Positions 1 to 10,372 of a stretch of DNA of 64,000 nucleotides are shown here, piece after piece. The notes under the pieces are model-generated. The model ran no database searches, was not told the origin of the DNA, and worked only from the letters and a program-made list of their open reading frames with translations. Every line of letters begins with the position of its first letter. Positions within the stretch are counted from its first letter, which is position 1. Source of the DNA: Thermoanaerobaculia bacterium (GTDB lineage Bacteria; Acidobacteriota; Thermoanaerobaculia; Multivoradales; J023); contig JALCBJ010000030.1 of NCBI GenBank assembly GCA_028066595.1, positions 8,580 to 72,579 of the forward strand, in the 5' to 3' direction. The position numbers were made by a program, and so were the translations under genes.

Positions 1-765
1 GAATGAGGGCTGCGCAGTCTCTGGGGCGATCACGCTGACGAGCGCCCAGAGTATTCCTCCTACTCCGACCGCGAAGGAGATGTGGAATACCAAAGTGGGC
101 CCGAAGAGGCGCGCCGCGTCGCCGAACCGGAGGCGCGGCAAACCCTGAAACCAGGGAGCGGTCGGCCCGAAGCGGCGTAGTCCGGTATCCATGACCCTCC
201 AGCCAAAGACGAGAACCAGAATCCCCCCTGTAGAGGCGAGCCAAACCAGATGGTGGTCGTGGTCCGGTAAGTACGTCGTGCCAGAAGCGAGGAGTATGAG
301 TGCCGCCGCTGCCGTCAGCATGCTCGCCATCTCCAAGATACTGCTAGCCACCAATGCGGTGTGGCTCAGTCCGGCCCGCCTTCCGAGGAGTTGTCGGCTC
401 ACGTAGTGAAAGATGTTTCCCGGCAGGTACTTTGCAACCTGGGAGCGGGCGAACACTTCGTAGCCGCGTCGCAGCGTCGGACGGCAACCATAGAGACCCG
501 CCAGCCACCACCATGCTAAAGCGTTGAGGACACTTAGTGCCGCATACGCCAATGCGCCAGCGGCGGTCCGCCCCAAGAGATGTCCTCCTTCGACGGAGGC
601 TGCGAGCTCGCGGCCGTTGGCGATCAAAGGCCGAAGCACCCAGATCAGACAAGCCGAGGAGAACAGCAGTACGAATGTGCGTACGTAGCGGGTGCGGTCT
701 CCCTCGGGCTCTCCCTCGGGAACCGTCCCACTCACTTCATCGGTATCGATCGCAGACTGTGTCAT
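1..765 (-). CDS. Integral membrane protein, 3' end beyond the window edge (flippase-like / UPF0104-type multi-TM protein); ATG at 765
   Basis: My own translation of the minus strand gives a stop-free frame running off coordinate 1: MTQSAIDTDEVSGTVPEGEPEGDRTRYVRTFVLLFSSACLIWVLRPL...GNIFHYVSRQLLG...LILLASGTTYL...ILVLVFGWRV. It has several hydrophobic segments and high GC3, and is co-directional with the downstream GT2. It is absent from the ORF track, presumably because it lacks a stop inside the window. Confidence 0.45.
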   Translation of the reverse strand, partial: MTQSAIDTDEVSGTVPEGEPEGDRTRYVRTFVLLFSSACLIWVLRPLIANGRELAASVEGGHLLGRTAAGALAYAALSVLNALAWWWLAGLYGCRPTLRRGYEVFARSQVAKYLPGNIFHYVSRQLLGRRAGLSHTALVASSILEMASMLTAAAALILLASGTTYLPDHDHHLVWLASTGGILVLVFGWRVMDTGLRRFGPTAPWFQGLPRLRFGDAARLFGPTLVFHISFAVGVGGILWALVSVIAPETAQPSF

Positions 766-922
766 CGGCAATCCGCTCGGTATATGGCCAAGGGCTGAGG
801 CTGACCTTCGTGCCGGACACTGAACCTACCGATTTGTCGGAGCGGATCCTGAGTACGGTTCTCGTCGCCGAGAATGCCGCAGACGAACTCCCTGGAGTGG
901 TCTGCGAGATCGAATCGAGGTG

Positions 923-1951
923 TCATCCGGAGGATGTCTCTGCTGTTTCGCGGCGGTCTTCCGCAGACAACCGGGGACGGAGCCTCTCGGAATGTAGGAG
1001 GTATCGAGTTTCTTCCAGCAGCTGTCGATTGACGCCTTGCAGGTGCGCCACGATGCCGATGGCGAGCATGAACACACCGCAGATGGCCAGCACACCCGAG
1101 GCCACTACCGACTGGACATGGCCCGTTCCCTCACCGAGCGCCACATAGACGAGGTAGCGAGTCGCGAGAAAGGCCGCCGGAATCAGGAACAGCGCTCCTA
1201 GTAGCCCAAAGATCCGAACCGGGTGGTAGATGACGTAGGTCTTCAGGATGTCGACCACGCTGCGCCGGAGGTAGGAGGGTATGGAGCGGATCAGTCGGCT
1301 CGGACGCGTCGGCCCGTTGACGCGGATCGGTACGTCGACGATGCGCAGGTTGGCGGATCCGGCCTGGATGATCGTCTCCAAGGTATAGGTGTAGCTAGAG
1401 AAGACGTTGAGACGTAGCGCCGCATCAGCCGTGAACGCGCGGAATCCGCTGGGTGCGTCGCGCACCTCGGTGCCACTCACGGTCCGTACCACTCGGCTCC
1501 CGAGGCGCTGCAGGAATCGTTTCAGGGGTGAGAAGTGGCGGATGGCCTGGATCGGGCGGGAGCCGATGACCATGTCGGCTTCCCCTGCGACGATCGGTGC
1601 CACGATCTTCTCGATGTCGTCTGCCTGGTATTGATTGTCCGCATCGGTGTTGACGATCACGTCGGCGGCCAGCTCTGCGGCCGCGAGCAGACCGGCTGTG
1701 AATGCCCGTGCCAAACCCTGGTTCCCATTCATCGGCACCACGTGATCGACGCCGTGCGCTCGGGCAACCGCCGCGGTATCGTCCGTACTGCCATCATCGA
1801 TCACCAACCATTCGACCGAGTCGACGCCCGGAAGCTCGCGAGGAAGGGCCGCGAGCGTAGCCGGCAGTGTCTTGGCCTCGTTGAGGCACGGAATCTGGAT
1901 GATGACTTTCAAGATAGATCCGTCGCGGTAGCTCTTTGTCGGGCTGCGCAT
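923..1951 (-). CDS. Family-2 glycosyltransferase, polyprenyl-phosphate sugar synthase-like (DPM1/ArnC/GtrB type) with a C-terminal TM anchor
   Basis: ORF 923..2197, trimmed to the internal start MRSPTKSYRDGSILKVIIQIPCLNE. GT2 motifs present: VIDDGSTDDT and NTDADNQY (DxD). The C-terminal hydrophobic helices are typical of DPM synthase/GtrB. Confidence 0.8.
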   Translation of the reverse strand: MRSPTKSYRDGSILKVIIQIPCLNEAKTLPATLAALPRELPGVDSVEWLVIDDGSTDDTAAVARAHGVDHVVPMNGNQGLARAFTAGLLAAAELAADVIVNTDADNQYQADDIEKIVAPIVAGEADMVIGSRPIQAIRHFSPLKRFLQRLGSRVVRTVSGTEVRDAPSGFRAFTADAALRLNVFSSYTYTLETIIQAGSANLRIVDVPIRVNGPTRPSRLIRSIPSYLRRSVVDILKTYVIYHPVRIFGLLGALFLIPAAFLATRYLVYVALGEGTGHVQSVVASGVLAICGVFMLAIGIVAHLQGVNRQLLEETRYLLHSERLRPRLSAEDRRETAETSSG

Positions 1952-2103
1952 CGCCTCCGCGTCGACCTCGACCGGTCGCCGTGGCCGCCACAGTCTCGCC
2001 GACCGGCTGGGCCGGGTCAACCGACAGGTACGAGGGCCCGCGCGAAGTGCCCTCGATCTCGTTGTTCCCGGTTCCGGCCGTTTGTTCGCTTGGAATGCCG
2101 GAG

Positions 2104-5100
2104 TCAGTCGCCCCCGCGAAGGACAGCGCTCTCCACGATCACAGACCGGTCCGTTCGTAGCTCCAGGCCGTCCACGTTCCCCTGCCACCAACGCCATTGG
2201 GTGCTGAGTCGGACCAGATAGTCGTCGCGACCAGAACGATCTTGCAGTAGAGCGAACGAGAAAGAGCTCGCGGGCTCGCCCCAGGTCAGCGAGATGGTGG
2301 GGGGGCTCTGTGCCGCGTCGTCCTCGGTTCGGATTTCCAGGTGGAGGTAGGCGCCGAGGGCGACATCGAAGATCAGATCTTCGGGAAAACGTAGATCGAG
2401 GGGCTCGCCACTCTCCATCTCTACCGGCTCGTCGAGGAGGTCGGCGAGTATCCGAGTCGTCGTGGCTGCCTTCAGCGGATCGTGCCGAGCCCAGATCGCC
2501 GGCAATGCATCGAGATCGAAGTTCTGCGCCAATTCCTCGTCGCGCAGTGGCCGATGGGATGAGCCACGCCCGCGGACGCGGACCTCCCGGATGGTCAGGG
2601 TCGATCCTTGGGGTGGATCGAAGCGAAGGTCTGTGAGCTGTCTTCCCTGTCCACCTGGTATTTCCAGCGTGACGATCCCGTCAGCTGCATCTTCGGGCAA
2701 GAACCAAGCGTGGGACTCTGCCGCGAAATACTGATCATCGAAGCCGAAGAACATCTGGATGGGCTCGTCGGCGGTGGATTCCATTCGCAGCTCGACCTGC
2801 CAGTCGTTGTGTGTGTAGAGATCGGGCAACGGCGTGGTGTCGAAGATGCCGAAAACGTGACCACCCGATGTCTTCCCTACGACACGAATCGCCCCGTCGG
2901 CTTGGAAGTTCGCAGTAGCTCCATATTCCTCCGCGCTGGAAGTGGATTCCAGAGTCCACTCACGGGTGTCTGCCGTGGTGGGCCAGGGAATCAGACGATT
3001 CCTGCGCCACCAGATCTGGTATTTGCCCACCGCTGCCGCAGGCCGGTAGTTCTCATAGAGCCACTCCGCCACCCGATAGCAGCGAACTTCGTTCGGCACT
3101 CCGTCTGTGGCATCCCAGAAGGCGTTGCCTTGCTTGAAGATCACCAGGGGTAGGCGGTCCGCTGCGGCGTAGACCGAAAGATCTCGTAGGGTTCGTGCCT
3201 GGACGGTCTCCGAAGTCTGAAGGAGGTTAGGAATAATGTAGGTTGGAAACTCGCGCTCGGCCAAAGCGTAGAGAAGAGGCGCGTTCGAGAAGTCGAAGAA
3301 GGTCTCATCTGGCTCAAGATGTCGATCGAGGAAGTCCAGCAGAGCACGATGACGACCGTCCGCGAAGCGCACCCTAGGCTCCCCTTCTTGGAATCGGTGG
3401 AAGCGAAAGAGGGTATCTCCCTGGCGCAGCGCGATTCCTAGGGGTGACGAGATGTCTTGCCGGGCTGGCGGAAGCGCGAAGAGTGACGTGGTCACCAGGA
3501 CGGCCGCGAAGACCGCCCGGCTGGAGGGGCGCTCGAACCGGCCGCCGTTGCGTTGGAACAACAGCGGAAGCAGGGCTAGTAGTAGTACCGAAAGGTAGGG
3601 GTTGAAAGCTTCGATGAGCGAGTGCCGTTCCATGGACCGAACTGAGATCACCAGCGAGAACGCGGCCAGGAAGGTCAGTAGCTGGAGACGGGTCGAGACC
3701 CACCGCCTTTGCAGAAGCTGGCGAGCAGTCAGGACGACGATGTACAGCAAAGCGACAGCCGGCACGAGGTAGTACTGCAGGACAGCTGCAGCGGTGTAGC
3801 TCTCGATCACTTCCGGACGCGTTCTCGTAAGCAACCGGTAGGAGTACGATTGGAAGAAAAAGCCGATAGTCTCGAAGAGGCGGGGGCCAGCCAGCAGCCT
3901 TGCCGTGGCGATCGACACGACGAAACCCGAAACCATCCAGGCCGCTGCTCTGGCGGCTGCTCGGCGGCGGTGGGCACCTCGCAGGAGATGTAGGCCGACC
4001 ACACCTGCGGCAGCTACGGACGCTGCCAGGCCGAAATCGATGCGCCAAAGGAGCACAGCCACTAGGGCGCAGGCCAAAGCAACGAAACGAGCAGTGGTCG
4101 GCCGTCGCAGGGCCTTGGCCAGAAAGATCGCCGGGAGCAGCACGATGGCGTAGTAAGGCCTGAAGGTGGACAGCACGGGTAGGAACAGGCAGGCGAGGAG
4201 GGCATATCCTGGTGAGAAGATCCTCGCCAATACGAAATAGGCGAGCATCAATCCGACGAGGTTTTTCAGGCCATGGCTCCAGATAAGTAGGTCCAGGCCC
4301 TGGACACCGTGGAACATGGCGTAGAGCCACTCGTACGCCATGTCGGAGAAAGTATGGGTCAGGCGCAGATCCAGCAGAGGTACCTTGGAGAACTGCAGGA
4401 GCTGCTGTGTCGGCAGTACGCTCTCACCCAGATGAAAGTAGTCGAGGTTGCCCAGGTGACGATGCGAGGGATGAAATCGCAGTAGTCCGACGGTAAAGAC
4501 CGTGAGGCCGAAGTAGACGTACAAGAGCCGATCGGAAACGCTACGGCGAACGTCCGCAGATGCATGTCGACGAAGCGGATTCCAGTGGTAGAGACCGACC
4601 GTCGAGGCCACCAACAGCAGAATCAGGACCAGGGCCACCCTCCTCGGATCGAGTGAGCGGAAGGCAGCCTGGACTTCGTTGGCCAGGGGCAGCGATGCGG
4701 GAACGAGCAGCCAAGGAATGACGGAGGCCATTAGGCGCGTGGACTCGGCACGACCGGTCGTTCGAGCGAGTCGGTAGCCCACGAGCCACAATGTGAGCAG
4801 CCACAACAAGGCCCAGAGGGTGTACCACATCGCGGTAGGAGCGCCTTGGAACCCCAACGGACGATCCGTGACGACCCAAACTACGAAGAATGCCGGCACT
4901 GGCCAGAATAGGGTGGCTACCAAGAACGATCGATCCACCCGTCGTAGAGGCTCGATCATCGAGAAAGAGGCAAACCACCGGTGGTTGCGGATGATCAGCA
5001 CGCCGATTGCGAGTACCGAGAGAAAGGCAAGCAGTATTGTCAGCGGACGCAGATCCACCCCGGCCGGGAAGAAGACATCGTAGATGGCGAGCGCTGCCCA

Positions 5101-5478
5101 GATTTCGGTCAGGCGGGCGATCCATCGATGTTCGGGCGCGTCAACTGTGGCGAACCCATCGATCCATCGACGGAGCCAACGAGCTCCGCCGTAGGCCACC
5201 AAAGAAACCAGGGCAAGGAGCACCTGGAGCCGTATGAAGCCGTGCGCATAGCCGGACGAATCCACTCCGGCGAGGGTCGCCATGCCGATGGCACGGTCGA
5301 AGAAGTGCTCCAGATCGGCTGCGTTGTGGAAGAGGCCGATGATCGGCCCCCGAAGTAGAGACAGCGCGATCGCGAGAGCCAAGCTGACGGGCCACGAACG
5401 GCCGTCCACCAGAGACTCCGGTGACGAGGCGAGGCGAGGATCGCGAGGCTTGATCAGGGGGGCGGCTCGGGTGGACAC
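2104..5478 (-). CDS. Very large polytopic membrane protein (about 20+ predicted TM helices followed by a ~400-aa soluble C-terminal domain); putative GT-C-type (Emb/AftD/PMT-like) glycosyltransferase
   Basis: 1124-aa ORF. The N-terminal ~700 aa are almost entirely hydrophobic helices and the C-terminal ~400 aa are hydrophilic. Placement directly upstream of a polyprenyl-P-sugar synthase-like GT2 and a flippase-like protein supports a GT-C role; this is inference, I recognised no motif. Confidence 0.55.
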   Translation of the reverse strand: MSTRAAPLIKPRDPRLASSPESLVDGRSWPVSLALAIALSLLRGPIIGLFHNAADLEHFFDRAIGMATLAGVDSSGYAHGFIRLQVLLALVSLVAYGGARWLRRWIDGFATVDAPEHRWIARLTEIWAALAIYDVFFPAGVDLRPLTILLAFLSVLAIGVLIIRNHRWFASFSMIEPLRRVDRSFLVATLFWPVPAFFVVWVVTDRPLGFQGAPTAMWYTLWALLWLLTLWLVGYRLARTTGRAESTRLMASVIPWLLVPASLPLANEVQAAFRSLDPRRVALVLILLLVASTVGLYHWNPLRRHASADVRRSVSDRLLYVYFGLTVFTVGLLRFHPSHRHLGNLDYFHLGESVLPTQQLLQFSKVPLLDLRLTHTFSDMAYEWLYAMFHGVQGLDLLIWSHGLKNLVGLMLAYFVLARIFSPGYALLACLFLPVLSTFRPYYAIVLLPAIFLAKALRRPTTARFVALACALVAVLLWRIDFGLAASVAAAGVVGLHLLRGAHRRRAAARAAAWMVSGFVVSIATARLLAGPRLFETIGFFFQSYSYRLLTRTRPEVIESYTAAAVLQYYLVPAVALLYIVVLTARQLLQRRWVSTRLQLLTFLAAFSLVISVRSMERHSLIEAFNPYLSVLLLALLPLLFQRNGGRFERPSSRAVFAAVLVTTSLFALPPARQDISSPLGIALRQGDTLFRFHRFQEGEPRVRFADGRHRALLDFLDRHLEPDETFFDFSNAPLLYALAEREFPTYIIPNLLQTSETVQARTLRDLSVYAAADRLPLVIFKQGNAFWDATDGVPNEVRCYRVAEWLYENYRPAAAVGKYQIWWRRNRLIPWPTTADTREWTLESTSSAEEYGATANFQADGAIRVVGKTSGGHVFGIFDTTPLPDLYTHNDWQVELRMESTADEPIQMFFGFDDQYFAAESHAWFLPEDAADGIVTLEIPGGQGRQLTDLRFDPPQGSTLTIREVRVRGRGSSHRPLRDEELAQNFDLDALPAIWARHDPLKAATTTRILADLLDEPVEMESGEPLDLRFPEDLIFDVALGAYLHLEIRTEDDAAQSPPTISLTWGEPASSFSFALLQDRSGRDDYLVRLSTQWRWWQGNVDGLELRTDRSVIVESAVLRGGD

Positions 5479-5507
5479 GAGCCGTGATCATACATAGCCG
5501 CGACAGA

Positions 5508-6764
5508 TCAGCCCAGGAGGTGGCTGGGCGGTGCCTCGACCGCCCAACCCGGGAAGAGAGACTTGCCTGGATCGAGTCGAAAGTGCTTTGTCGCCACTTC
5601 TTGGAATACGGTGCGAAAGTCGAGACCCACGGGGAGATCACGGCCCTCGAATAGGTTTTCCGGTGCCAACTTGGGAACGCTTCCGTGAACACGACCGCCT
5701 TCCACTTCACCTCCGAGGAGAAACAGGCATGAGCCGTGACCGTGGTCGGTGCCGCCCGTGCCGTTCTCGGCAACCGTGCGACCAAACTCGGTCATCGTCA
5801 TCAGGGTCACCTCGGCGCGATGGCGGCCCAGATCGTGCCAAAAGGCGGAGATCGAGCGGGCCAGATCGCCGGCTCGGGCCGCGAAGCTGCCGCGATCGCT
5901 TCCCTGTTGTACGTGGGTATCCCATCCGCCCGATTCGGCGAACGCGACTTGTAGTCCGACGTCCGATTTCACCAGGAAGGCGATCTGCATCAGAGCCCGG
6001 CCGAGGGGTGAGCTCGGGTAGTCGGCGCCGCTGGCGGGGCGGTAGTTTCTTACATCCAGTGCCTTCAGTGTTTCCACCGCCTCGAAGGTCTCGGCACCGG
6101 TGTCTCTAAGGAGGTCCTGCGAGGTCTGCTCGTAGAGTGCTTCGAAGCCCTGGCCGGCTGCCTGTGCGGCGCTGTGATTCCCTGGTAGCTCGACATCGAA
6201 TGTGCGCAGGTTGGTGACGGCGAGGGCGGGCTCGTTTCCATACAACGAGCGGGGAAGAGCCGGCGTCAGCGATACGGCTCGGAACGGCGTCGTGTCGTGG
6301 CCGAGACGTCCGACCACCCGGTTGAGCCAACCATCGGGTGTGCCTTTGCGGCCCGGAGTACCCGTTTCCATGTAATCCTGCGCATCGAAGTGTGATCGGG
6401 TGGAGGAAGGGGATCCGACTCCGTGAACGACTCCGAGGACTCCTTCGCGATATAGCGGTAGGAGGTCGCCGAAAGCTGGGTGAAGTCCGTAGCCGTTGCC
6501 GAGGTCCACCACTCGATCTCTCGATCGGCCGAGGCTCGACCCACCGGCGGGCAGATGTAGCCGTGGCCGAAGGCTCTGCAGCCTGGGATCGGTGAGTGGG
6601 GGCACTGCCGCGAGCCCGTCCATCGCACCGCGCTGGAAGATCGTCACCAGGACTTTGGGGCGGCGCCCGTTTGCACGCGCCGCGCGTTCGAGGAAGGTGG
6701 GCCCCGCGCCGACGGTGATCAAGGCGATGGCTCCGGACTTGAGGAAGGCTCTGCGGTCGAGCAT
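5508..6764 (-). CDS. DUF1501 family protein with a twin-arginine (Tat) signal
   Basis: N-terminus MLDRRAFLKSGAIALI is a Tat motif. The body matches the sulfatase-like DUF1501 family (GGWDTH..., TEFGRT...GTDHG). It is paired with the upstream DUF1800 gene, as is usual for this family. Confidence 0.8.
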   Translation of the reverse strand: MLDRRAFLKSGAIALITVGAGPTFLERAARANGRRPKVLVTIFQRGAMDGLAAVPPLTDPRLQSLRPRLHLPAGGSSLGRSRDRVVDLGNGYGLHPAFGDLLPLYREGVLGVVHGVGSPSSTRSHFDAQDYMETGTPGRKGTPDGWLNRVVGRLGHDTTPFRAVSLTPALPRSLYGNEPALAVTNLRTFDVELPGNHSAAQAAGQGFEALYEQTSQDLLRDTGAETFEAVETLKALDVRNYRPASGADYPSSPLGRALMQIAFLVKSDVGLQVAFAESGGWDTHVQQGSDRGSFAARAGDLARSISAFWHDLGRHRAEVTLMTMTEFGRTVAENGTGGTDHGHGSCLFLLGGEVEGGRVHGSVPKLAPENLFEGRDLPVGLDFRTVFQEVATKHFRLDPGKSLFPGWAVEAPPSHLLG

Positions 6765-6802
6765 GTCGGACTCCTGTGATCGGGTAGGTGTCGATGCGGC
6801 GG

Positions 6803-8872
6803 CTATCGGCGCTGGAACTCAGGTGAGCCGAGGATTACGCCGACGACGTGGGCGGTGAAGCTGTCATCCGGATGGGTTGCTGGCGCCGCTCGCCTTGCTC
6901 GGAGATCGCGCCGTCCGGGTCCTCGTGTGACGTCCCAGTCGGCGTCGCTCGAGACGTCGGTACCCCGGCCACCGGTCCGATCTCTTTCTGCCAAGGGATT
7001 CCAGGTGTTGTCCTCGTCGTCATCGGGCGCAGCTCGGGCGACCTTGTCGGCAAGGTCCGGATCCTGTATCACCGGCAGCAGTCTGCGCATGGTGGGTTCG
7101 GGATCCCGTTCCGGAATCAGGAAGGTGAGCCAATGACGCAATTGCTCCTCCGGTGACGTCTCGTCAGGCGGGTGGCCGGTGTATCGATCGAGCTCTACGC
7201 GAATACCCGCGACCCTTCCCGTGGCGAGCTGGAGACCGAAGTTCATTCGTTGGAGCAGGGCTCCGGTGTTCACCCATGCCTCGGCGCGGTCCGGGAAACC
7301 TGTGGGGGCTTGATACGCGTAGAGCGGTTGACCCATACGCCGGATCCACTCCAGGGTCTCTCGAGGGTCCGAGGAGTGGGCATCGAGTGCACGCAACGCC
7401 GAGATGGTCAGCTCGAATGGGGACTTGATCTTCTGGCCGATTGAGTCGGCCGACCAGAACTCAGGCGATGCGACCAGCTCCGCCAGCATGGCTCGGATAT
7501 CTCCTCCGGACGCTTGATAGATCTTCGCCAGCCGGTCGATGAGAGATCGCGGTGGCTGATCAGAAACGAACCGGATCGCTAGCTTGGTGGAGAGATGCTG
7601 GGCGGTGGACGGATGGTTCGCCAGAAGGTCCAGGACGTCCTCGCCGTCCTCGACACCCCGCCCCGCAGGCAGCTCGCGACCGAGAACGAGCTTGCGCTCC
7701 GCATCGTGGGCGTCCGGGCGGAAAAGAAAGGCATTTTCGATCACGAATCCGGCACGTGTACGTAGGCCTGCTCGGGCCCGTTCCAGTCGCTCCGGCAGTC
7801 CACGAGGTGGCACGACAGTCCAGCCCGTGAAGGATCGGGCCACCTCCACAACATCCTCTTGGGTGTAGCCGCCGTCCACGCCGAGGGTGTGAAGCTCCAT
7901 GAGCTCCCGGGCATAGTTCTCGTTCAGACCTGTGGCCCGTTGCCGGCCTCCTTGCGAGTCGCGCTGCCGCTGGTCGCGTAGCTCGGCCCGCCTCGGGCCA
8001 TTGATTCCACGACGACCTCGCCTCTCCGAGGCTCTTCTCGAGCGCAGGTCCCAGGTTGTCGTGGTGTCCTTCTCGGCCACACTGAGTGCGTTGTCGAGGT
8101 AGAGCAGCATGGCGGGGTGACGGGCGGTGGCTCCCAGCATGTCGTGGAACGAGCCAGCGACATGAGGCCGGATGGCGTCGCGCTCGTAGGGCCAGAGAAA
8201 GATGCGGGCCCGGTTGTCCGTAAGCGAGACGTTGAAGTGGTTGAACCAGAAGTCGGTGAGGACCTCGTGCAGCTGGTTCTCGGAATGCCGGGCGCGCGCC
8301 AGCTTCTGGATCATCAGGTCGGCCAGGGCTTCGCGCTGCGAGCCGAATCCCTTTTCTTCGGCAAGGGCACGGACTGCCCGTCGCTGCTCGGCCCTCTTCC
8401 GAGGCTCGGTTCCGGATCCCTCTGCCGGTAGGGCGGCAGCCGTGTCGCCCTCGGGCGACTCGATCACACCTTCTTGGATCGCCATACGCCGGACGGCCCC
8501 GGGAGACGGATATCGTCGCGCCAGCTCCAGAGCGTCCAGCTCGAAGGTCGCTAGACCCTCCAGGAAGCGATCGAGCTCAGGTGTTGCCAAGCCGCCGTCG
8601 AGTTGCTGCTCGAACCAGGTTTCCAAGCCGATCGCCAAGACCCGGTCGAGGTCGCCGGGTCGAGCGCCGAAGGTAAAGCGGTCGAGCAGATGAGCCGCAG
8701 CCTGGCGTTCCGTCAAGCCTGCCTGTCGCCAGGGCATCTCGATGGAGGAGTCGGCGGAGCCGGTGTGCCCGATATCGGCAGCCAAGGCCCAGCCGGGTAG
8801 TGCCAGCCAAGCGATGAGTAGGGCGAGGTGCCGGTGAGTCGGTGGATGAACAGCGCTGATTCGCGACGGCAT
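6803..8872 (-). CDS. DUF1800 family secreted protein (partner of DUF1501)
   Basis: 689-aa ORF with a signal peptide (MPSRISAVHPPTHRHLALLIAWLALPGWALAA). The early conserved DRFTFGARPGDLD stretch is typical of DUF1800. It lies immediately upstream of the DUF1501 gene. Confidence 0.75.
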   Translation of the reverse strand: MPSRISAVHPPTHRHLALLIAWLALPGWALAADIGHTGSADSSIEMPWRQAGLTERQAAAHLLDRFTFGARPGDLDRVLAIGLETWFEQQLDGGLATPELDRFLEGLATFELDALELARRYPSPGAVRRMAIQEGVIESPEGDTAAALPAEGSGTEPRKRAEQRRAVRALAEEKGFGSQREALADLMIQKLARARHSENQLHEVLTDFWFNHFNVSLTDNRARIFLWPYERDAIRPHVAGSFHDMLGATARHPAMLLYLDNALSVAEKDTTTTWDLRSRRASERRGRRGINGPRRAELRDQRQRDSQGGRQRATGLNENYARELMELHTLGVDGGYTQEDVVEVARSFTGWTVVPPRGLPERLERARAGLRTRAGFVIENAFLFRPDAHDAERKLVLGRELPAGRGVEDGEDVLDLLANHPSTAQHLSTKLAIRFVSDQPPRSLIDRLAKIYQASGGDIRAMLAELVASPEFWSADSIGQKIKSPFELTISALRALDAHSSDPRETLEWIRRMGQPLYAYQAPTGFPDRAEAWVNTGALLQRMNFGLQLATGRVAGIRVELDRYTGHPPDETSPEEQLRHWLTFLIPERDPEPTMRRLLPVIQDPDLADKVARAAPDDDEDNTWNPLAERDRTGGRGTDVSSDADWDVTRGPGRRDLRARRAAPATHPDDSFTAHVVGVILGSPEFQRR

Positions 8873-9094: not shown

Positions 9095-10372
9095 TTAGTG
9101 GGGATCGGAGGCGCGCCGTTGCGGTGCCCTCTCGGGCTCTGTGCCCGAGGGGCCCACCACGCGGTTTCGGCCGCCCTGCTTGGCGCGATAAAGCCGCTCG
9201 TCGGCCAGGCGCAAGGCCTCCGACAAGTCGCTTCCGTCGTCGGGCCAAACCGCGACACCGATCGACACCGTAACCCGGACCACTTTTCCCTTCTCCAGGT
9301 GGATCGGGGTTCCCTCCATGCGGGCGCGCAGGATCTCGAGACGGTTGATTGCATCCTGGATGTTCATGCCTGGGAAGATGCCTGCGAACTCTTCGCCTCC
9401 GTAGCGGGCTACGAGGTCGGTGGTCCGAAACTGATTCGAAAGCACACGGGCGACGCTGACAAGGGCGATATCCCCGGCCTGATGACCATACGAGTCGTTG
9501 AACTTCTTGAAGTGGTCGACGTCGATCATCACCACAGCCACCGGATCGCCCGAGCGCGACGCGATGGCACCGATACGGTGGATGCTCTCGTTGAAGAAAC
9601 CTCGGTTCGCCAGATTGGTCAGGCGATCGCGATTAGAACGTGCCCGCTGTTCTTTGGCGCGAACCACGACCGTGGTGGCGAGAAGAGTCGCCATCGCGAG
9701 CAGGACGCCGCGTCCGATCTGGGAGGTCCAGCTGAACTGCTCCGCGAGAATCGGTGAGGTGGCAGCGTCGTTCAGATCCCACAACCACTCGGTGTAGTAG
9801 ACCAAACCGAGGTACTGCACCACCGCCGTGGTGCCGGCGAGGATACAGACTCTCCAGTCGTAACGCAGACTGGTCGCTCCGATGGCCAAGAAGTAGACCG
9901 GAAAGATCAGGAGGTCGTTGGTCACCTGCAGCGGTTGACCCAGCCGGAGGAAAATGAATAGGGAGAGAGTGACCAGAGACACGTCGATGATGCCGCTGAA
10001 GAAACCTATCCACCCCCGTCCCCAACTGCGCATGACCGCTGAATACACGATCAGGGCCTCGGCGAGGGCGGCAACGGCGAGCCAAAGAATGGCCTCCCGT
10101 CCACGCTCGTTGGGGGAATCGAAGTAGGTGCGGAGAGGGAAATAGAGGATCAGCACGATGATCAGCAGCCGCACGCCTGCGATCAACCATTCTCCCCGTT
10201 GCCCTGCATCGACCAGATCCGGATCCGGTGGGGCCCAGATGCGCCGGAACCAGGCCAGGAATCCGTCGGTCTTCTTCCCTGGCCGAGCCTGGCCAGCCCC
10301 GTGGGAATGTAGCGGTGGTTTGTGGGAGGTCTCGACCACGGTCGCCTGGCCGGGTGCTCCCGAAACGCTCAT
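9095..10372 (-). CDS. Membrane-anchored diguanylate cyclase (multi-TM N-terminal domain + GGDEF)
   Basis: C-terminal GGDEF domain: RYGGEEFAGIF, with DVDHFKKFNDSYGH and an upstream RxxD-like region. The N-terminal half carries five or six hydrophobic helices. Confidence 0.8.
   Translation of the reverse strand: MSVSGAPGQATVVETSHKPPLHSHGAGQARPGKKTDGFLAWFRRIWAPPDPDLVDAGQRGEWLIAGVRLLIIVLILYFPLRTYFDSPNERGREAILWLAVAALAEALIVYSAVMRSWGRGWIGFFSGIIDVSLVTLSLFIFLRLGQPLQVTNDLLIFPVYFLAIGATSLRYDWRVCILAGTTAVVQYLGLVYYTEWLWDLNDAATSPILAEQFSWTSQIGRGVLLAMATLLATTVVVRAKEQRARSNRDRLTNLANRGFFNESIHRIGAIASRSGDPVAVVMIDVDHFKKFNDSYGHQAGDIALVSVARVLSNQFRTTDLVARYGGEEFAGIFPGMNIQDAINRLEILRARMEGTPIHLEKGKVVRVTVSIGVAVWPDDGSDLSEALRLADERLYRAKQGGRNRVVGPSGTEPERAPQRRASDPH

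Follow-up and report, generated by a model that had tools for sequence, protein, structure and literature searches.

Does the block of five genes at the edge of this window encode one envelope system or two, and what does the giant membrane protein at its centre do? The window, a 64,000-nucleotide stretch of a Thermoanaerobaculia (Acidobacteriota) metagenome contig, carries these genes on the minus strand; the first-pass annotation described them as co-directional and coupled a DUF1800/DUF1501 pair to a glycan-transfer trio. All five genes are present as described. We consider it fairly probable that the block consists of two unrelated modules, side by side only in the window lineage, of which the first (module A) is the DUF1800/DUF1501 pair and the second (module B) is the glycosylation trio.

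Layout of the locus

The features of the block are as follows.

6803..8872, minus strand: DUF1800 protein, 689 aa (Pfam PF08811, E 2.9e-129, full profile coverage)
5508..6764, minus strand: DUF1501 protein, 418 aa (Pfam PF07394, E 1.6e-28)
2104..5409, minus strand: giant membrane protein, 1,101 aa from GTG 5409 (maximal ORF 2104-5478, 1,124 aa)
3466..5409, minus strand: giant protein, membrane domain, residues 1-648, ~19 TM helices placed from models, predicted N-in/C-out
4294..4473, minus strand: giant protein, periplasmic loop after TM9, residues 313-372 (60 residues), candidate catalytic loop
2995..3444, minus strand: giant protein, periplasmic alpha/beta domain, residues 656-805, its best-conserved part
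2107..2994, minus strand: giant protein, two C-terminal beta-sandwiches, residues 806-1101, CBM-like by Foldseek
923..1951, minus strand: GT2 polyprenyl-phosphate glycosyltransferase, 342 aa, GT-A domain and two C-terminal TM helices
1..765, minus strand: PF03706 protein, N-terminal 255 of 335 residues, the gene continuing past the window edge

The giant gene is given the start of the public gene call for an identical protein (P0001), which is preceded by GGAG ~7 nt upstream. The GT2 gene most likely starts at ATG 1951 and not at 2197, because the source-contig gene call and the homologues agree on the former. Recalculated from these starts, the gaps between genes measure 38, 98, 152 and 157 nt and are not uniformly 30-40 bp as first stated. 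None of the gaps holds an intrinsic-terminator-like site, and across the region as a whole such sites are no more numerous than in shuffled sequence. The same-direction run extends upstream to GGDEF and MacB/FtsX genes and is ended by a convergent Wzx gene immediately beyond the left edge of the window.

An undescribed family with a recurrent GT2 partner

The giant protein has no Pfam, NCBIfam or PDB sequence match, and 42 diverse members of its family gave zero Pfam family matches, GT-C, Wzy_C/O-antigen-ligase and transporter families included. Its relatives form ~1,850 clusters (1,848 representatives) at 50% identity and span bacteria and archaea, and every named member that we checked is annotated 'hypothetical protein'. 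Judged by these relatives, the giant protein founds a large undescribed and unnamed family.

Its function is best supported by gene context. The giant gene lies beside an AglJ/DPM1-type GT2 in Acidobacteriota, Bacillota, Bacteroidota, Vulcanimicrobiota and Methanothrix. A GT2 of AglJ/DPM1/ArnC type is found at most two co-directional genes away in the window, in L006 and L007, and in loci from Methanothrix (L014), Paenibacillus (L015, L028), Bacteroidota (L018, L021, L025) and Vulcanimicrobiota (L019, L032), so the pairing seen in the window recurs across distant phyla. A gene for a UDP-galactopyranose-mutase-like FAD enzyme sits between giant and GT2 in L015, L018, L021, L025 and L028, and in L026 such a gene precedes the GT2, ~1.9 kb downstream of the giant gene; these six loci suggest furanose donors. 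Elsewhere the giant gene adjoins a UbiA-family gene (L024) or YfhO (L008, L022).

The window GT2 (Pfam PF00535, E 5.7e-21) was correctly taken in the first pass for a synthase of polyprenyl-P-sugar type. Its sole PDB relatives, ArnC (4.9e-10, residues 13-299) and the archaeal DPMS 5mlz, are both polyprenyl-phosphate glycosyltransferases, its best NCBIfam relatives are AglJ (3.3e-30), PpgS (8.6e-19) and ArnC (1.8e-10), all below equivalog cut-offs, and its C-terminus forms two hydrophobic helices. The neighbouring PF03706 (LPG_synthase_TM / UPF0104 / PplT) protein scores 26.5 bits as the window fragment, below the Pfam cut-off, and 47.1 bits against a cut-off of 33.4 at its full length of 335 aa on the source contig (L009). 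It matches the flippase region of MprF (2.1e-5) and is a putative flippase for a lipid-linked sugar. The order GT2 then PF03706 occurs also in L007, and in archaeal AglD a PF03706 domain is fused to a GT2 (PMC5898192; bioRxiv 10.1101/2022.03.11.483950).

We favour, with moderate confidence, the reading of module B as a three-component extracytoplasmic glycosylation system of the GtrABC, CsbB-GtcA-YfhO or AglD-AglR-AglS type. [quoted passage not shown] The family as a whole probably attaches sugars to cell-surface glycans.

The user of the GT2 product could instead be a GT39/PMT_2 protein, a bona fide GT-C enzyme ('glycosyltransferase family 39 protein' in NCBI) whose gene lies on the source contig ~6.5 kb past the window edge, invisible in the first pass. 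We regard this as unlikely. It draws on the gene order of L007, where giant, GT2 and PF03706 are followed directly by PMT_2, on the giant TM domain having no significant GT-C match, and on the loci in which no GT2 was detected near the giant homologue (L001, L003, L004, L013, L017, L023). However, the giants of Paenibacillus, Bacteroidota, Vulcanimicrobiota and Methanothrix pair with a GT2 in loci where the GT39 and YfhO probes found no match, which leaves the giant as the only large polytopic membrane candidate for donor user there. The other envelope roles that the giant would then fill, as glycan polymerase or ligase, export or anchoring scaffold, or glycan-binding sensor, are likewise doubtful, and the first of them finds no Wzy_C/O-antigen-ligase or other Pfam match. 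It is normal, as mycobacteria show, for several GT-C enzymes to draw on a single donor synthase; the GT39 protein and the giant are therefore not necessarily alternatives.

A probably autonomous DUF1800/DUF1501 pair

The DUF1800 protein, first gene of module A, has a signal-peptide-like N-terminus ending ALA/AD, and the translated DUF1501 protein shows the twin-arginine motif DRRAFLK; neither has a PDB relative. To place the pair we surveyed 80 loci with a DUF1501 relative at 46-65% identity, taking neighbours within 8 kb. DUF1800 adjoins DUF1501 in 65 of them, upstream in 64 and downstream in one, and 14 of the 15 loci with no detected DUF1800 have fewer than 450 bases of upstream sequence. 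The window pair is typical in its arrangement, with the secreted DUF1800 upstream of the Tat-signal DUF1501 as in 64/80 loci, and is distinctive only in lying upstream of a glycosylation module.

The first-pass annotation read the five genes as one functional operon in which DUF1800 and DUF1501 process the trio's glycoconjugate in the periplasm. The genes are indeed co-directional with terminator-free gaps, the order DUF1501 then giant is kept in contigs L005 and L006, and DUF1800/DUF1501 pairs have been described as operons transferred together with bacterial chitin synthase (GT2) genes (PMC5122149). Yet a giant-family gene is missing from all 80 DUF1501 loci, where the GT2, PF03706, GT39 and YfhO probes likewise detected no relative, and DUF1800 and DUF1501 are absent from ~25 other giant-family contexts. 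The order DUF1501 then giant is found only in the window, L005 and L006, and the latter two are not independent observations because they are close relatives, their DUF1501 being 87% identical to that of the window. The five-gene synteny is thus essentially unique to this lineage. A single operon is accordingly quite improbable: the DUF1800 protein and the Tat-exported DUF1501 protein are probably an autonomous periplasmic pair, and the giant gene beside them is a narrow-lineage juxtaposition whose link is not conserved.

Predicted structure of the giant protein

An AF2 model of the giant protein (pLDDT 82.4, pTM 0.80) has ~19 TM helices in residues 1-648 followed by ~450 extracytoplasmic residues, close to the 20 or more helices and ~400-aa C-terminal domain first proposed. 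The extracytoplasmic part is modelled as an alpha/beta domain and two CBM-like beta-sandwiches, which match CBM86, CBM29 and CBM6 in Foldseek at target TM-scores of 0.5-0.66. The predicted N-in/C-out topology is supported by the positive-inside rule, with a K+R density over 42 homologues of 0.21 per residue in predicted cytoplasmic loops versus 0.08 in periplasmic ones.

The near-invariant polar residues all fall on the predicted periplasmic side. The loop after TM9 contains amphipathic helices and the conserved residues D323, Q336, P344, D347 and D356, with D323 and Q336 each kept in 40/42 homologues and P344 invariant. A candidate site facing the periplasm would combine the near-invariant carboxylates D50, E245 and D323 with a basic cluster of R39, R591, R595 and H596. 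The alpha/beta domain is 64-67% identical to the closest homologues versus 42-48% for the C-terminal domains; it carries the motifs TFFDFxNxPxLY and DGxPNExRxYRIAExIY and the near-invariant residues R679, T703, F704, N709, Q737, D769 and E782. The first beta-sandwich is the most variable part of the protein and is missing from ~960-aa family members, which match profile positions 1-810 and the C-terminus. The alpha/beta domain, which is conserved, and the CBM-like sandwiches, which vary, may together hold the acceptor.

The resemblance to Emb/AftD/PMT-type GT-C enzymes proposed in the first pass finds partial support. Among the 50 full-length Foldseek matches listed, the sole membrane proteins are GT-C enzymes (EmbC, STT3, AftD, EmbA/B), with weak E values (EmbC 7e-4, STT3 9e-4, AftD 2e-3). 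However, a separate model of the TM domain (pTM 0.88) gives nothing significant in Foldseek (best E = 1.0, TM-score ≤0.23); its highest, non-significant TM-scores are to STT3 and EmbB, 0.22-0.23 versus ~0.1 for ABC/MFS transporters. In hhalign the giant aligns with the GT39 profile at 4.5% probability and with that of YfhO at 0.7%, a comparison with no power since a control of two known GT-C families likewise gives 0.7%; at non-significant probability, it sets the loop after TM9 on the first extracytoplasmic loop of both GT39 and YfhO. In canonical GT-C enzymes the long helical periplasmic loop follows TM1, whereas in the giant protein the loop with the best-conserved Asp comes after TM9. Because the TM domain has no significant structural match and the 42 family members have no Pfam match, GT-C is a functional analogy and membership is unproven; the giant protein plausibly works like a GT-C enzyme.

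That the giant is an MMPL-, ABC- or MFS-like transporter or permease, moving a glycolipid or polysaccharide, is very improbable, since the protein does not model as one: ABC exporters are the top TM-only Foldseek rows, but at non-significant values (E ≥1, probability ≤0.08, TM-score ~0.1, rmsd >25 Å), and TAP1 appears at E 0.04 in a profile search against PDB sequences, but the giant has no nucleotide-binding domain, partner ATPase or transporter Pfam match, and its conserved polar residues lie on periplasmic loops and not mid-membrane.

Comparison with known systems

Like the mycobacterial GT-C enzymes EmbA/B/C and AftD (GT53 and relatives), which measure ~1,100-1,400 aa, the giant protein has a large polytopic N-terminal domain and C-terminal carbohydrate-binding-type beta-sandwiches, and EmbC and AftD are its best full-length membrane matches along with STT3. 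The TM-scores are only ~0.2, though, the match is mostly lost when the soluble domains are removed, and there is no sequence similarity, the Pfam search (which would include Emb-type models) having returned no GT-C match.

GT136 pentofuranose systems (Citrobacter youngae ORF15/14/12; PMC11127046) are likewise built from a synthase for the lipid-linked donor, a flippase and a polytopic transferase. The C-terminal CBM of GT136 binds the acceptor glycan, which the CBM-like C-terminal domains of the giant recall, and the UbiA-family and UDP-galactopyranose-mutase-like genes found at giant loci are a further likeness. GT136 resembles ArnT and has 11 TM helices, its helical periplasmic domain and catalytic Asp coming straight after TM1, whereas the giant has ~19 and its main conserved helical loop after TM9, and no significant structural neighbour was found for its TM domain; the window donor synthase is a GT2 and the putative flippase is not of the MATE type.

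The neighbouring window GT2 and PF03706 proteins correspond to the two domains of AglD, from Haloferax N-glycosylation (PMC5898192). As in the AglD/AglR/AglS pathway, a separate outer-face transferase would complete the system, and AglJ is the closest NCBIfam relative of the GT2. Unlike AglD, the window genes are bacterial and encode the two domains separately; the transferase proposed for the outer face comes from an unrelated family, and the acceptor need not be a protein.

GtrA/GtrB/GtrC carry out O-antigen glucosylation and CsbB/GtcA/YfhO teichoic-acid glycosylation. In both, as in module B, a GT2 that makes the polyprenyl-phosphate sugar and ends in TM helices is encoded beside two polytopic proteins, a small putative flippase and a large one bearing an extracytoplasmic domain. 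They differ in that the window's putative flippase is of PF03706/MprF type and not GtrA-family, and in that the giant, with ~19 TM helices and three periplasmic domains, has no match to GtrC-type proteins, YfhO or any other Pfam GT-C family. The giant also shares with GtrC a divergence far more rapid than that of the donor synthase: contigs with 84-87% identity in the flanking DUF1501 and GT2 (GT2 84%) have giants that are 48-52% identical, and by per-region identity the differences cluster in TM1-8 and the beta-sandwiches.

Gene organization of the block

The first-pass annotation described five co-directional genes on the minus strand at the left end of the window, and the ORF listing and translation bear this out. 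Two further genes extend the co-directional run upstream of DUF1800.

Genes of the block and its upstream extension (window coordinates)
1–765, minus strand, LPG_synthase_TM protein (PF03706, by Pfam), gene cut by the window edge
923–1951, minus strand, GT2 (PF00535, E 5.7e-21)
2104–5478 at most, minus strand, giant ORF, without Pfam or NCBIfam match
5508–6764, minus strand, DUF1501 (Pfam E 1.6e-28; 100.5 bits against a gathering score of 27)
6803–8872, minus strand, DUF1800 (Pfam E 2.9e-129; 432 bits against a gathering score of 26.1)
9095–10372, minus strand, GGDEF diguanylate cyclase, 425 aa
10496–13210, minus strand, MacB/FtsX-type permease, 904 aa

A public protein from a 73-kb ENA metagenome scaffold (P0001) is identical to the giant protein, with 1,101 aa and a start at GTG 5409, and a GGAG lies upstream of this GTG. 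The GT2 start is most likely ATG 1951, in agreement with the gene call of the source contig and with homologues. With these revised starts the intergenic gaps are 38 (DUF1800–DUF1501), 98, 152 and 157 nt. A promoter/terminator scan returned no promoter-like sites and no terminator-like sites in the gaps; terminator-like sites occurred at chance level, all of them within genes.

The source contig (L009) completes the PF03706 gene, which encodes 335 aa. Next to it, a Wzx-type (Polysacc_synt) flippase is encoded convergently, and beyond this come genes for a coiled-coil protein of 997 aa and for a GT-C enzyme of the GT39/PMT_2 type; the three occupy L009:15591–22019, left of window position 1. 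The coiled-coil protein has a weak EzrA/spectrin-like match.

An autonomous DUF1800/DUF1501 pair

The two genes at the upstream end of the block form a typical pair: both products score above the gathering threshold, the genes are adjacent and co-directional, DUF1800 has a signal-peptide-like N-terminus and the translated N-terminus of DUF1501 carries a twin-arginine motif (DRRAFLK). DUF1800 also has a long Arg-rich low-complexity insertion at residues ~270–320 (RRASERRGRRGINGPRRAELRDQRQRDSQGGRQR), and is 689 residues long against the 419 positions of the Pfam profile.

It had been suggested that the physical coupling of this pair to the glycan-transfer trio formed by the giant protein, GT2 and the PF03706 protein hints at glycoconjugate processing in the periplasm. 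Comparison of loci does not support such a link. The order DUF1501-then-giant gene is repeated in two loci only, L005 and L006, both closely related to the window. Scanning metagenomes with the window DUF1501 gave 80 loci at 46–65% identity, and in ~33 of these DUF1501 is followed by 3.5 kb or more of downstream sequence. In none of the 80 was a member of the giant family present, and the probes for GT2, PF03706, GT39, YfhO and Wzx detected no relative. In 65 of the loci DUF1800 was detected next to DUF1501: 64 have it immediately upstream and one has it downstream. Fourteen of the other 15 have less than 450 bases upstream, and the last (L086) has 8 kb of upstream sequence in which DUF1800 gave no match. 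Because in these 80 loci DUF1800 so regularly accompanies DUF1501, and the giant gene and glycosylation relatives accompany it in none, the pair is autonomous. DUF1800/DUF1501 pairs have been described as co-transferred with bacterial chitin synthases (2016; PMC5122149). A general glycan-related role for the pair is possible, to which this locus lends no support, and the analysis leaves the functional link from the pair to the glycosylation module, tempting as it is, unsupported.

GT2 and the PF03706 protein make a lipid-linked sugar pathway plausible

The only relatives of the GT2 among PDB structures are ArnC (E 4.9e-10, residues 13–299) and archaeal dolichol-phosphate mannose synthase (DPMS). 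Its NCBIfam relatives are AglJ (3.3e-30), PpgS (8.6e-19), a Dol-P hexose transferase and ArnC (1.8e-10), all matching below the equivalog cut-offs. The GT-A domain is thus closest to polyprenyl-phosphate-sugar synthases, and the translated C-terminus contains two hydrophobic segments, VRIFGLLGALFLIPAAFLATRYLVYVAL and VQSVVASGVLAICGVFMLAIGIVAHL, resembling the terminal TM helices of GtrB and ArnC. Since its sole solved relatives, its family matches and its two terminal helices all agree, we assign the protein, on sequence grounds, as a polyprenyl-phosphate glycosyltransferase of the DPM1/GtrB/ArnC/AglJ type, as had been suggested for it; the sub-cut-off matches do not specify the sugar.

The full-length PF03706 protein, at 47.1 bits, clears the cut-off of 33.4 and covers profile positions 6–295 of 302, whereas the window fragment alone scores 26.5 bits. 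PF03706 is the MprF flippase domain, and the protein may flip the lipid-linked sugar. In archaeal AglD, PF03706 is fused to a GT2 (PMC5898192; bioRxiv 10.1101/2022.03.11.483950). The adjoining GT2 and PF03706 genes of the window and of a related locus, L007, resemble a split AglD. No GtrA-family (PF04138) match was found anywhere in the block, and so the small membrane component differs from that of GtrABC systems, with the PF03706 protein in place of a GtrA-family flippase.

The giant protein belongs to a large, undescribed family

A word-indexed search with the giant protein found only 22 relatives. When a profile was run against 1.84 billion representatives, 1,848 matched with E ≤ 1e-3 and 743 reached E ≤ 1e-30, a family of ~1,850 clusters at 50% identity. 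A genome scan places it in Thermoanaerobaculia, Methanothrix, three Paenibacillus species, Bacteroidota, Vulcanimicrobiota, Spirochaetota, Chloroflexia, Undinarchaeota, Binatia and Halieaceae. Two architectures occur, one of ~1,100 aa and one of ~960 aa that lacks the first beta-sandwich. Two candidates for naturally N-terminally shorter members (P0117 and P0142), of interest for whether TM9–19 forms an independent core, turned out to be cut off where their contigs end. Not one of 42 diverse members matches any relevant Pfam family, searches of PDB sequences with profiles produced nothing beyond TM matches of compositional origin (E at least 0.04), every source name found for ten sampled clusters was 'hypothetical protein', and our literature searches found no description of the family.

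The full-length AF2 model of the giant protein (pLDDT 82.4, pTM 0.80) consists of TM helices as far as residue ~648, followed by an alpha/beta domain (656–805) and two beta-sandwich domains. The predicted topology is ~19 TM helices, N-in/C-out, with a periplasmic C-terminal region of 450 aa, a polytopic layout with an extracytoplasmic domain like that of GT-C enzymes. Across 42 homologues, this topology puts 0.21 K+R per residue in cytoplasmic loops versus 0.08 in periplasmic loops.

The near-invariant polar residues of the membrane domain all map to the periplasmic side of the model. F36 (41/42), R39 (40/42) and D50 (37/42) lie in the loop after TM1 (residues 30–54), which is short and modelled with low confidence. 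E245 is near-invariant and periplasmic; D323 (40/42) and Q336 lie in a 60-residue helical loop that follows TM9 rather than TM1; and R591, R595, H596 and E600, between TM17 and TM18, are likewise near-invariant and periplasmic. This pattern would suit an enzyme that works at the outer face and has a phosphorylated lipid as ligand, and not a transporter.

Is the giant protein a GT-C enzyme?

The first-pass annotation likened the giant protein to GT-C enzymes, a comparison that stands for the layout and, faintly, for the fold, but not for the sequence. Recognised GT-C families of the Pfam clan (PMT, PMT_2, STT3, YfhO, Arabinose_trans and others) match 0 of the 42 diverse members at E ≤ 0.01, and the giant protein itself falls in no GT-C sequence family. 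When every ORF of the loci retrieved was searched with the family HMM (hmmsearch), no link to GT39 or YfhO proteins emerged. In hhalign comparisons, which used GT39 and YfhO at first as single sequences and later as profiles assembled from their homologues in databases, probabilities ranged from 0.1 to 4.5% overall. The family profile scored 4.5% against GT39 and 0.7% against YfhO, and because the known GT-C pair GT39 versus YfhO also reached only 0.7%, we discarded this comparison as evidence either way. Both alignments place the 320–370 loop of the giant protein on the first extracytoplasmic loop of GT39 or YfhO, at those same probabilities of 4.5% and 0.7%.

In a full-length Foldseek search of the PDB, the C-terminal domains match CBM6, CBM29 and CBM86 modules, and among the 50 matches listed the only membrane proteins are GT-C enzymes (EmbC 7e-4, STT3 9e-4, AftD 2e-3 and EmbA/B), with TM-scores of only 0.2–0.3. 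Residues 1–660 were modelled alone (pTM 0.88) so that the soluble domains could not affect the result, and this TM-domain model had no significant match (best E 1.0); among the non-significant ones, STT3 and EmbB had the highest TM-scores (0.22–0.23), with ABC and MFS proteins at ~0.1. The TM-only search therefore neither confirms GT-C nor supports a transporter. The modelled protein resembles GT-C enzymes in layout and weakly in fold, a likeness rather than an established membership.

Gene context of the giant family

A polyprenyl-phosphate-type GT2 lies within two co-directional genes of the giant gene in the window, L006 and L007 (Thermoanaerobaculia), L014 (Methanothrix), L015 and L028 (Paenibacillus), L018, L021 and L025 (Bacteroidota), and L019 and L032 (Vulcanimicrobiota). 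This adjacency to an AglJ/DPM1/ArnC-type GT2 thus recurs in five phyla; several giant homologues have no GT2 detected nearby. In a Binatia MAG (L024:2394–6708) the giant gene is followed directly by a UbiA-family gene of the prenyltransferase fold, which recalls polyprenyl-phosphate phosphoribosyltransferases, makers of pentofuranose donors. Taking adjacency to GT2 and UbiA-family genes as a proxy, the giant protein is a putative user of a polyprenyl-phosphate-linked sugar donor on the membrane's outer face.

Five loci have a ~400-aa FAD enzyme between the giant gene and GT2, and a sixth has a looser version of the same arrangement.

Loci combining giant gene, FAD enzyme and GT2
L015:9437–14709 and L028:319–3325, Paenibacillus piri and P. 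solanacearum
L018:9722–15056, L021:9881–15068 and L025:9263–14463, three Bacteroidota MAGs
L026:9923–17352, P. alba, FAD-then-GT2 pair beginning ~1.9 kb downstream of the giant gene

The GT2 proteins of the FAD-enzyme loci are of the AglJ/Dol-P-hexose type and 228–247 aa long, and the best solved relatives of the L015 FAD enzyme are eukaryote-type UDP-galactopyranose mutases (UGM; E 2e-27). Together the genes would link nucleotide-sugar, lipid-sugar and outer-face transfer in one coherent route. The arrangement suggests extracytoplasmic furanosylation via a polyprenyl-phosphate-furanose donor. In Methanothrix (L014:7844–13237) and at the P0165 locus, on a JGI contig, the FAD enzyme accompanying GT2 is not UGM-like but a DAO-type oxidoreductase; the latter locus is a GT2/DAO/GT22 cluster that also has an AP_endonuc_2 (sugar isomerase-like) gene. 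A YfhO-family GT-C gene lies between two giant paralogues with ~70% mutual identity in Thermoanaerobaculia (L008:4155–13780, same as L012), and YfhO is upstream of the giant gene in L022.

A probable three-component glycosylation module

The first-pass annotation was thus sound in what it observed and partly so in what it made of it: the GT2 type holds, GT-C identity is unproven and the DUF1800/DUF1501 coupling is unsupported. We think it probable that the giant protein, GT2 and the PF03706 protein constitute a GtrABC/AglD-like three-component glycosylation module, in which a member of the undescribed 19-TM family would act as the outer-face transferase. The main rival is that the real user of the lipid-linked donor made by GT2 is the nearby GT39; such a GT39/PMT_2 GT-C enzyme is indeed encoded on the source contig, beyond the window edge.

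If the giant protein is the transferase, it would found a new family of glycosyltransferases, perhaps with an architecture new to membrane enzymes of this kind, and would reveal an extracytoplasmic furanosylation route based on a GT2 instead of a PRPP-dependent enzyme. Transferases of three-component systems keep founding CAZy families, GT136 (2024) being a recent example, and extracytoplasmic glycosylation by these systems drives diversity in antigens and phage receptors. The family is now delimited as large, spread over two domains of life, unnamed and without Pfam, NCBIfam or PDB relatives; a confident model, a topology and candidate catalytic residues are in hand, and the cultured carriers Paenibacillus piri, P. 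alba and P. solanacearum make it directly testable. A bolder proposal, which we regard as unlikely, is that the giant protein represents a new structural class of lipid-linked-sugar membrane glycosyltransferase in bacteria and archaea, neither GT-C_A nor GT-C_B, whose periplasm-facing site comprises the post-TM9 loop and the R-x3-R-H motif, and which, with the UGM-like enzyme and short GT2, adds furanose outside the cell in Paenibacillus and Bacteroidota.

The giant gene also diverges faster than its neighbours. Between related contigs (window 2104–5409 compared with L005:1009–4539 and L006:1776–4862) the giant protein is 48–52% identical, against 87% for the flanking DUF1501 and 84% for GT2. 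The divergence falls mostly in TM1–8 and the beta-sandwiches, and the alpha/beta domain and TM10–19 are best conserved. GtrC is variable beside conserved GtrA and GtrB, and a variable giant protein beside a conserved GT2 may, by analogy, mirror this. A hypervariable gene between conserved flanks is also the pattern of serotype-specific glycan-modifying enzymes. Upstream of the Vulcanimicrobiota giant gene, L019:4423–6915 encodes an 830-aa protein without Pfam match that matches the family HMM marginally (E 0.0015), and may be a very distant paralogue.
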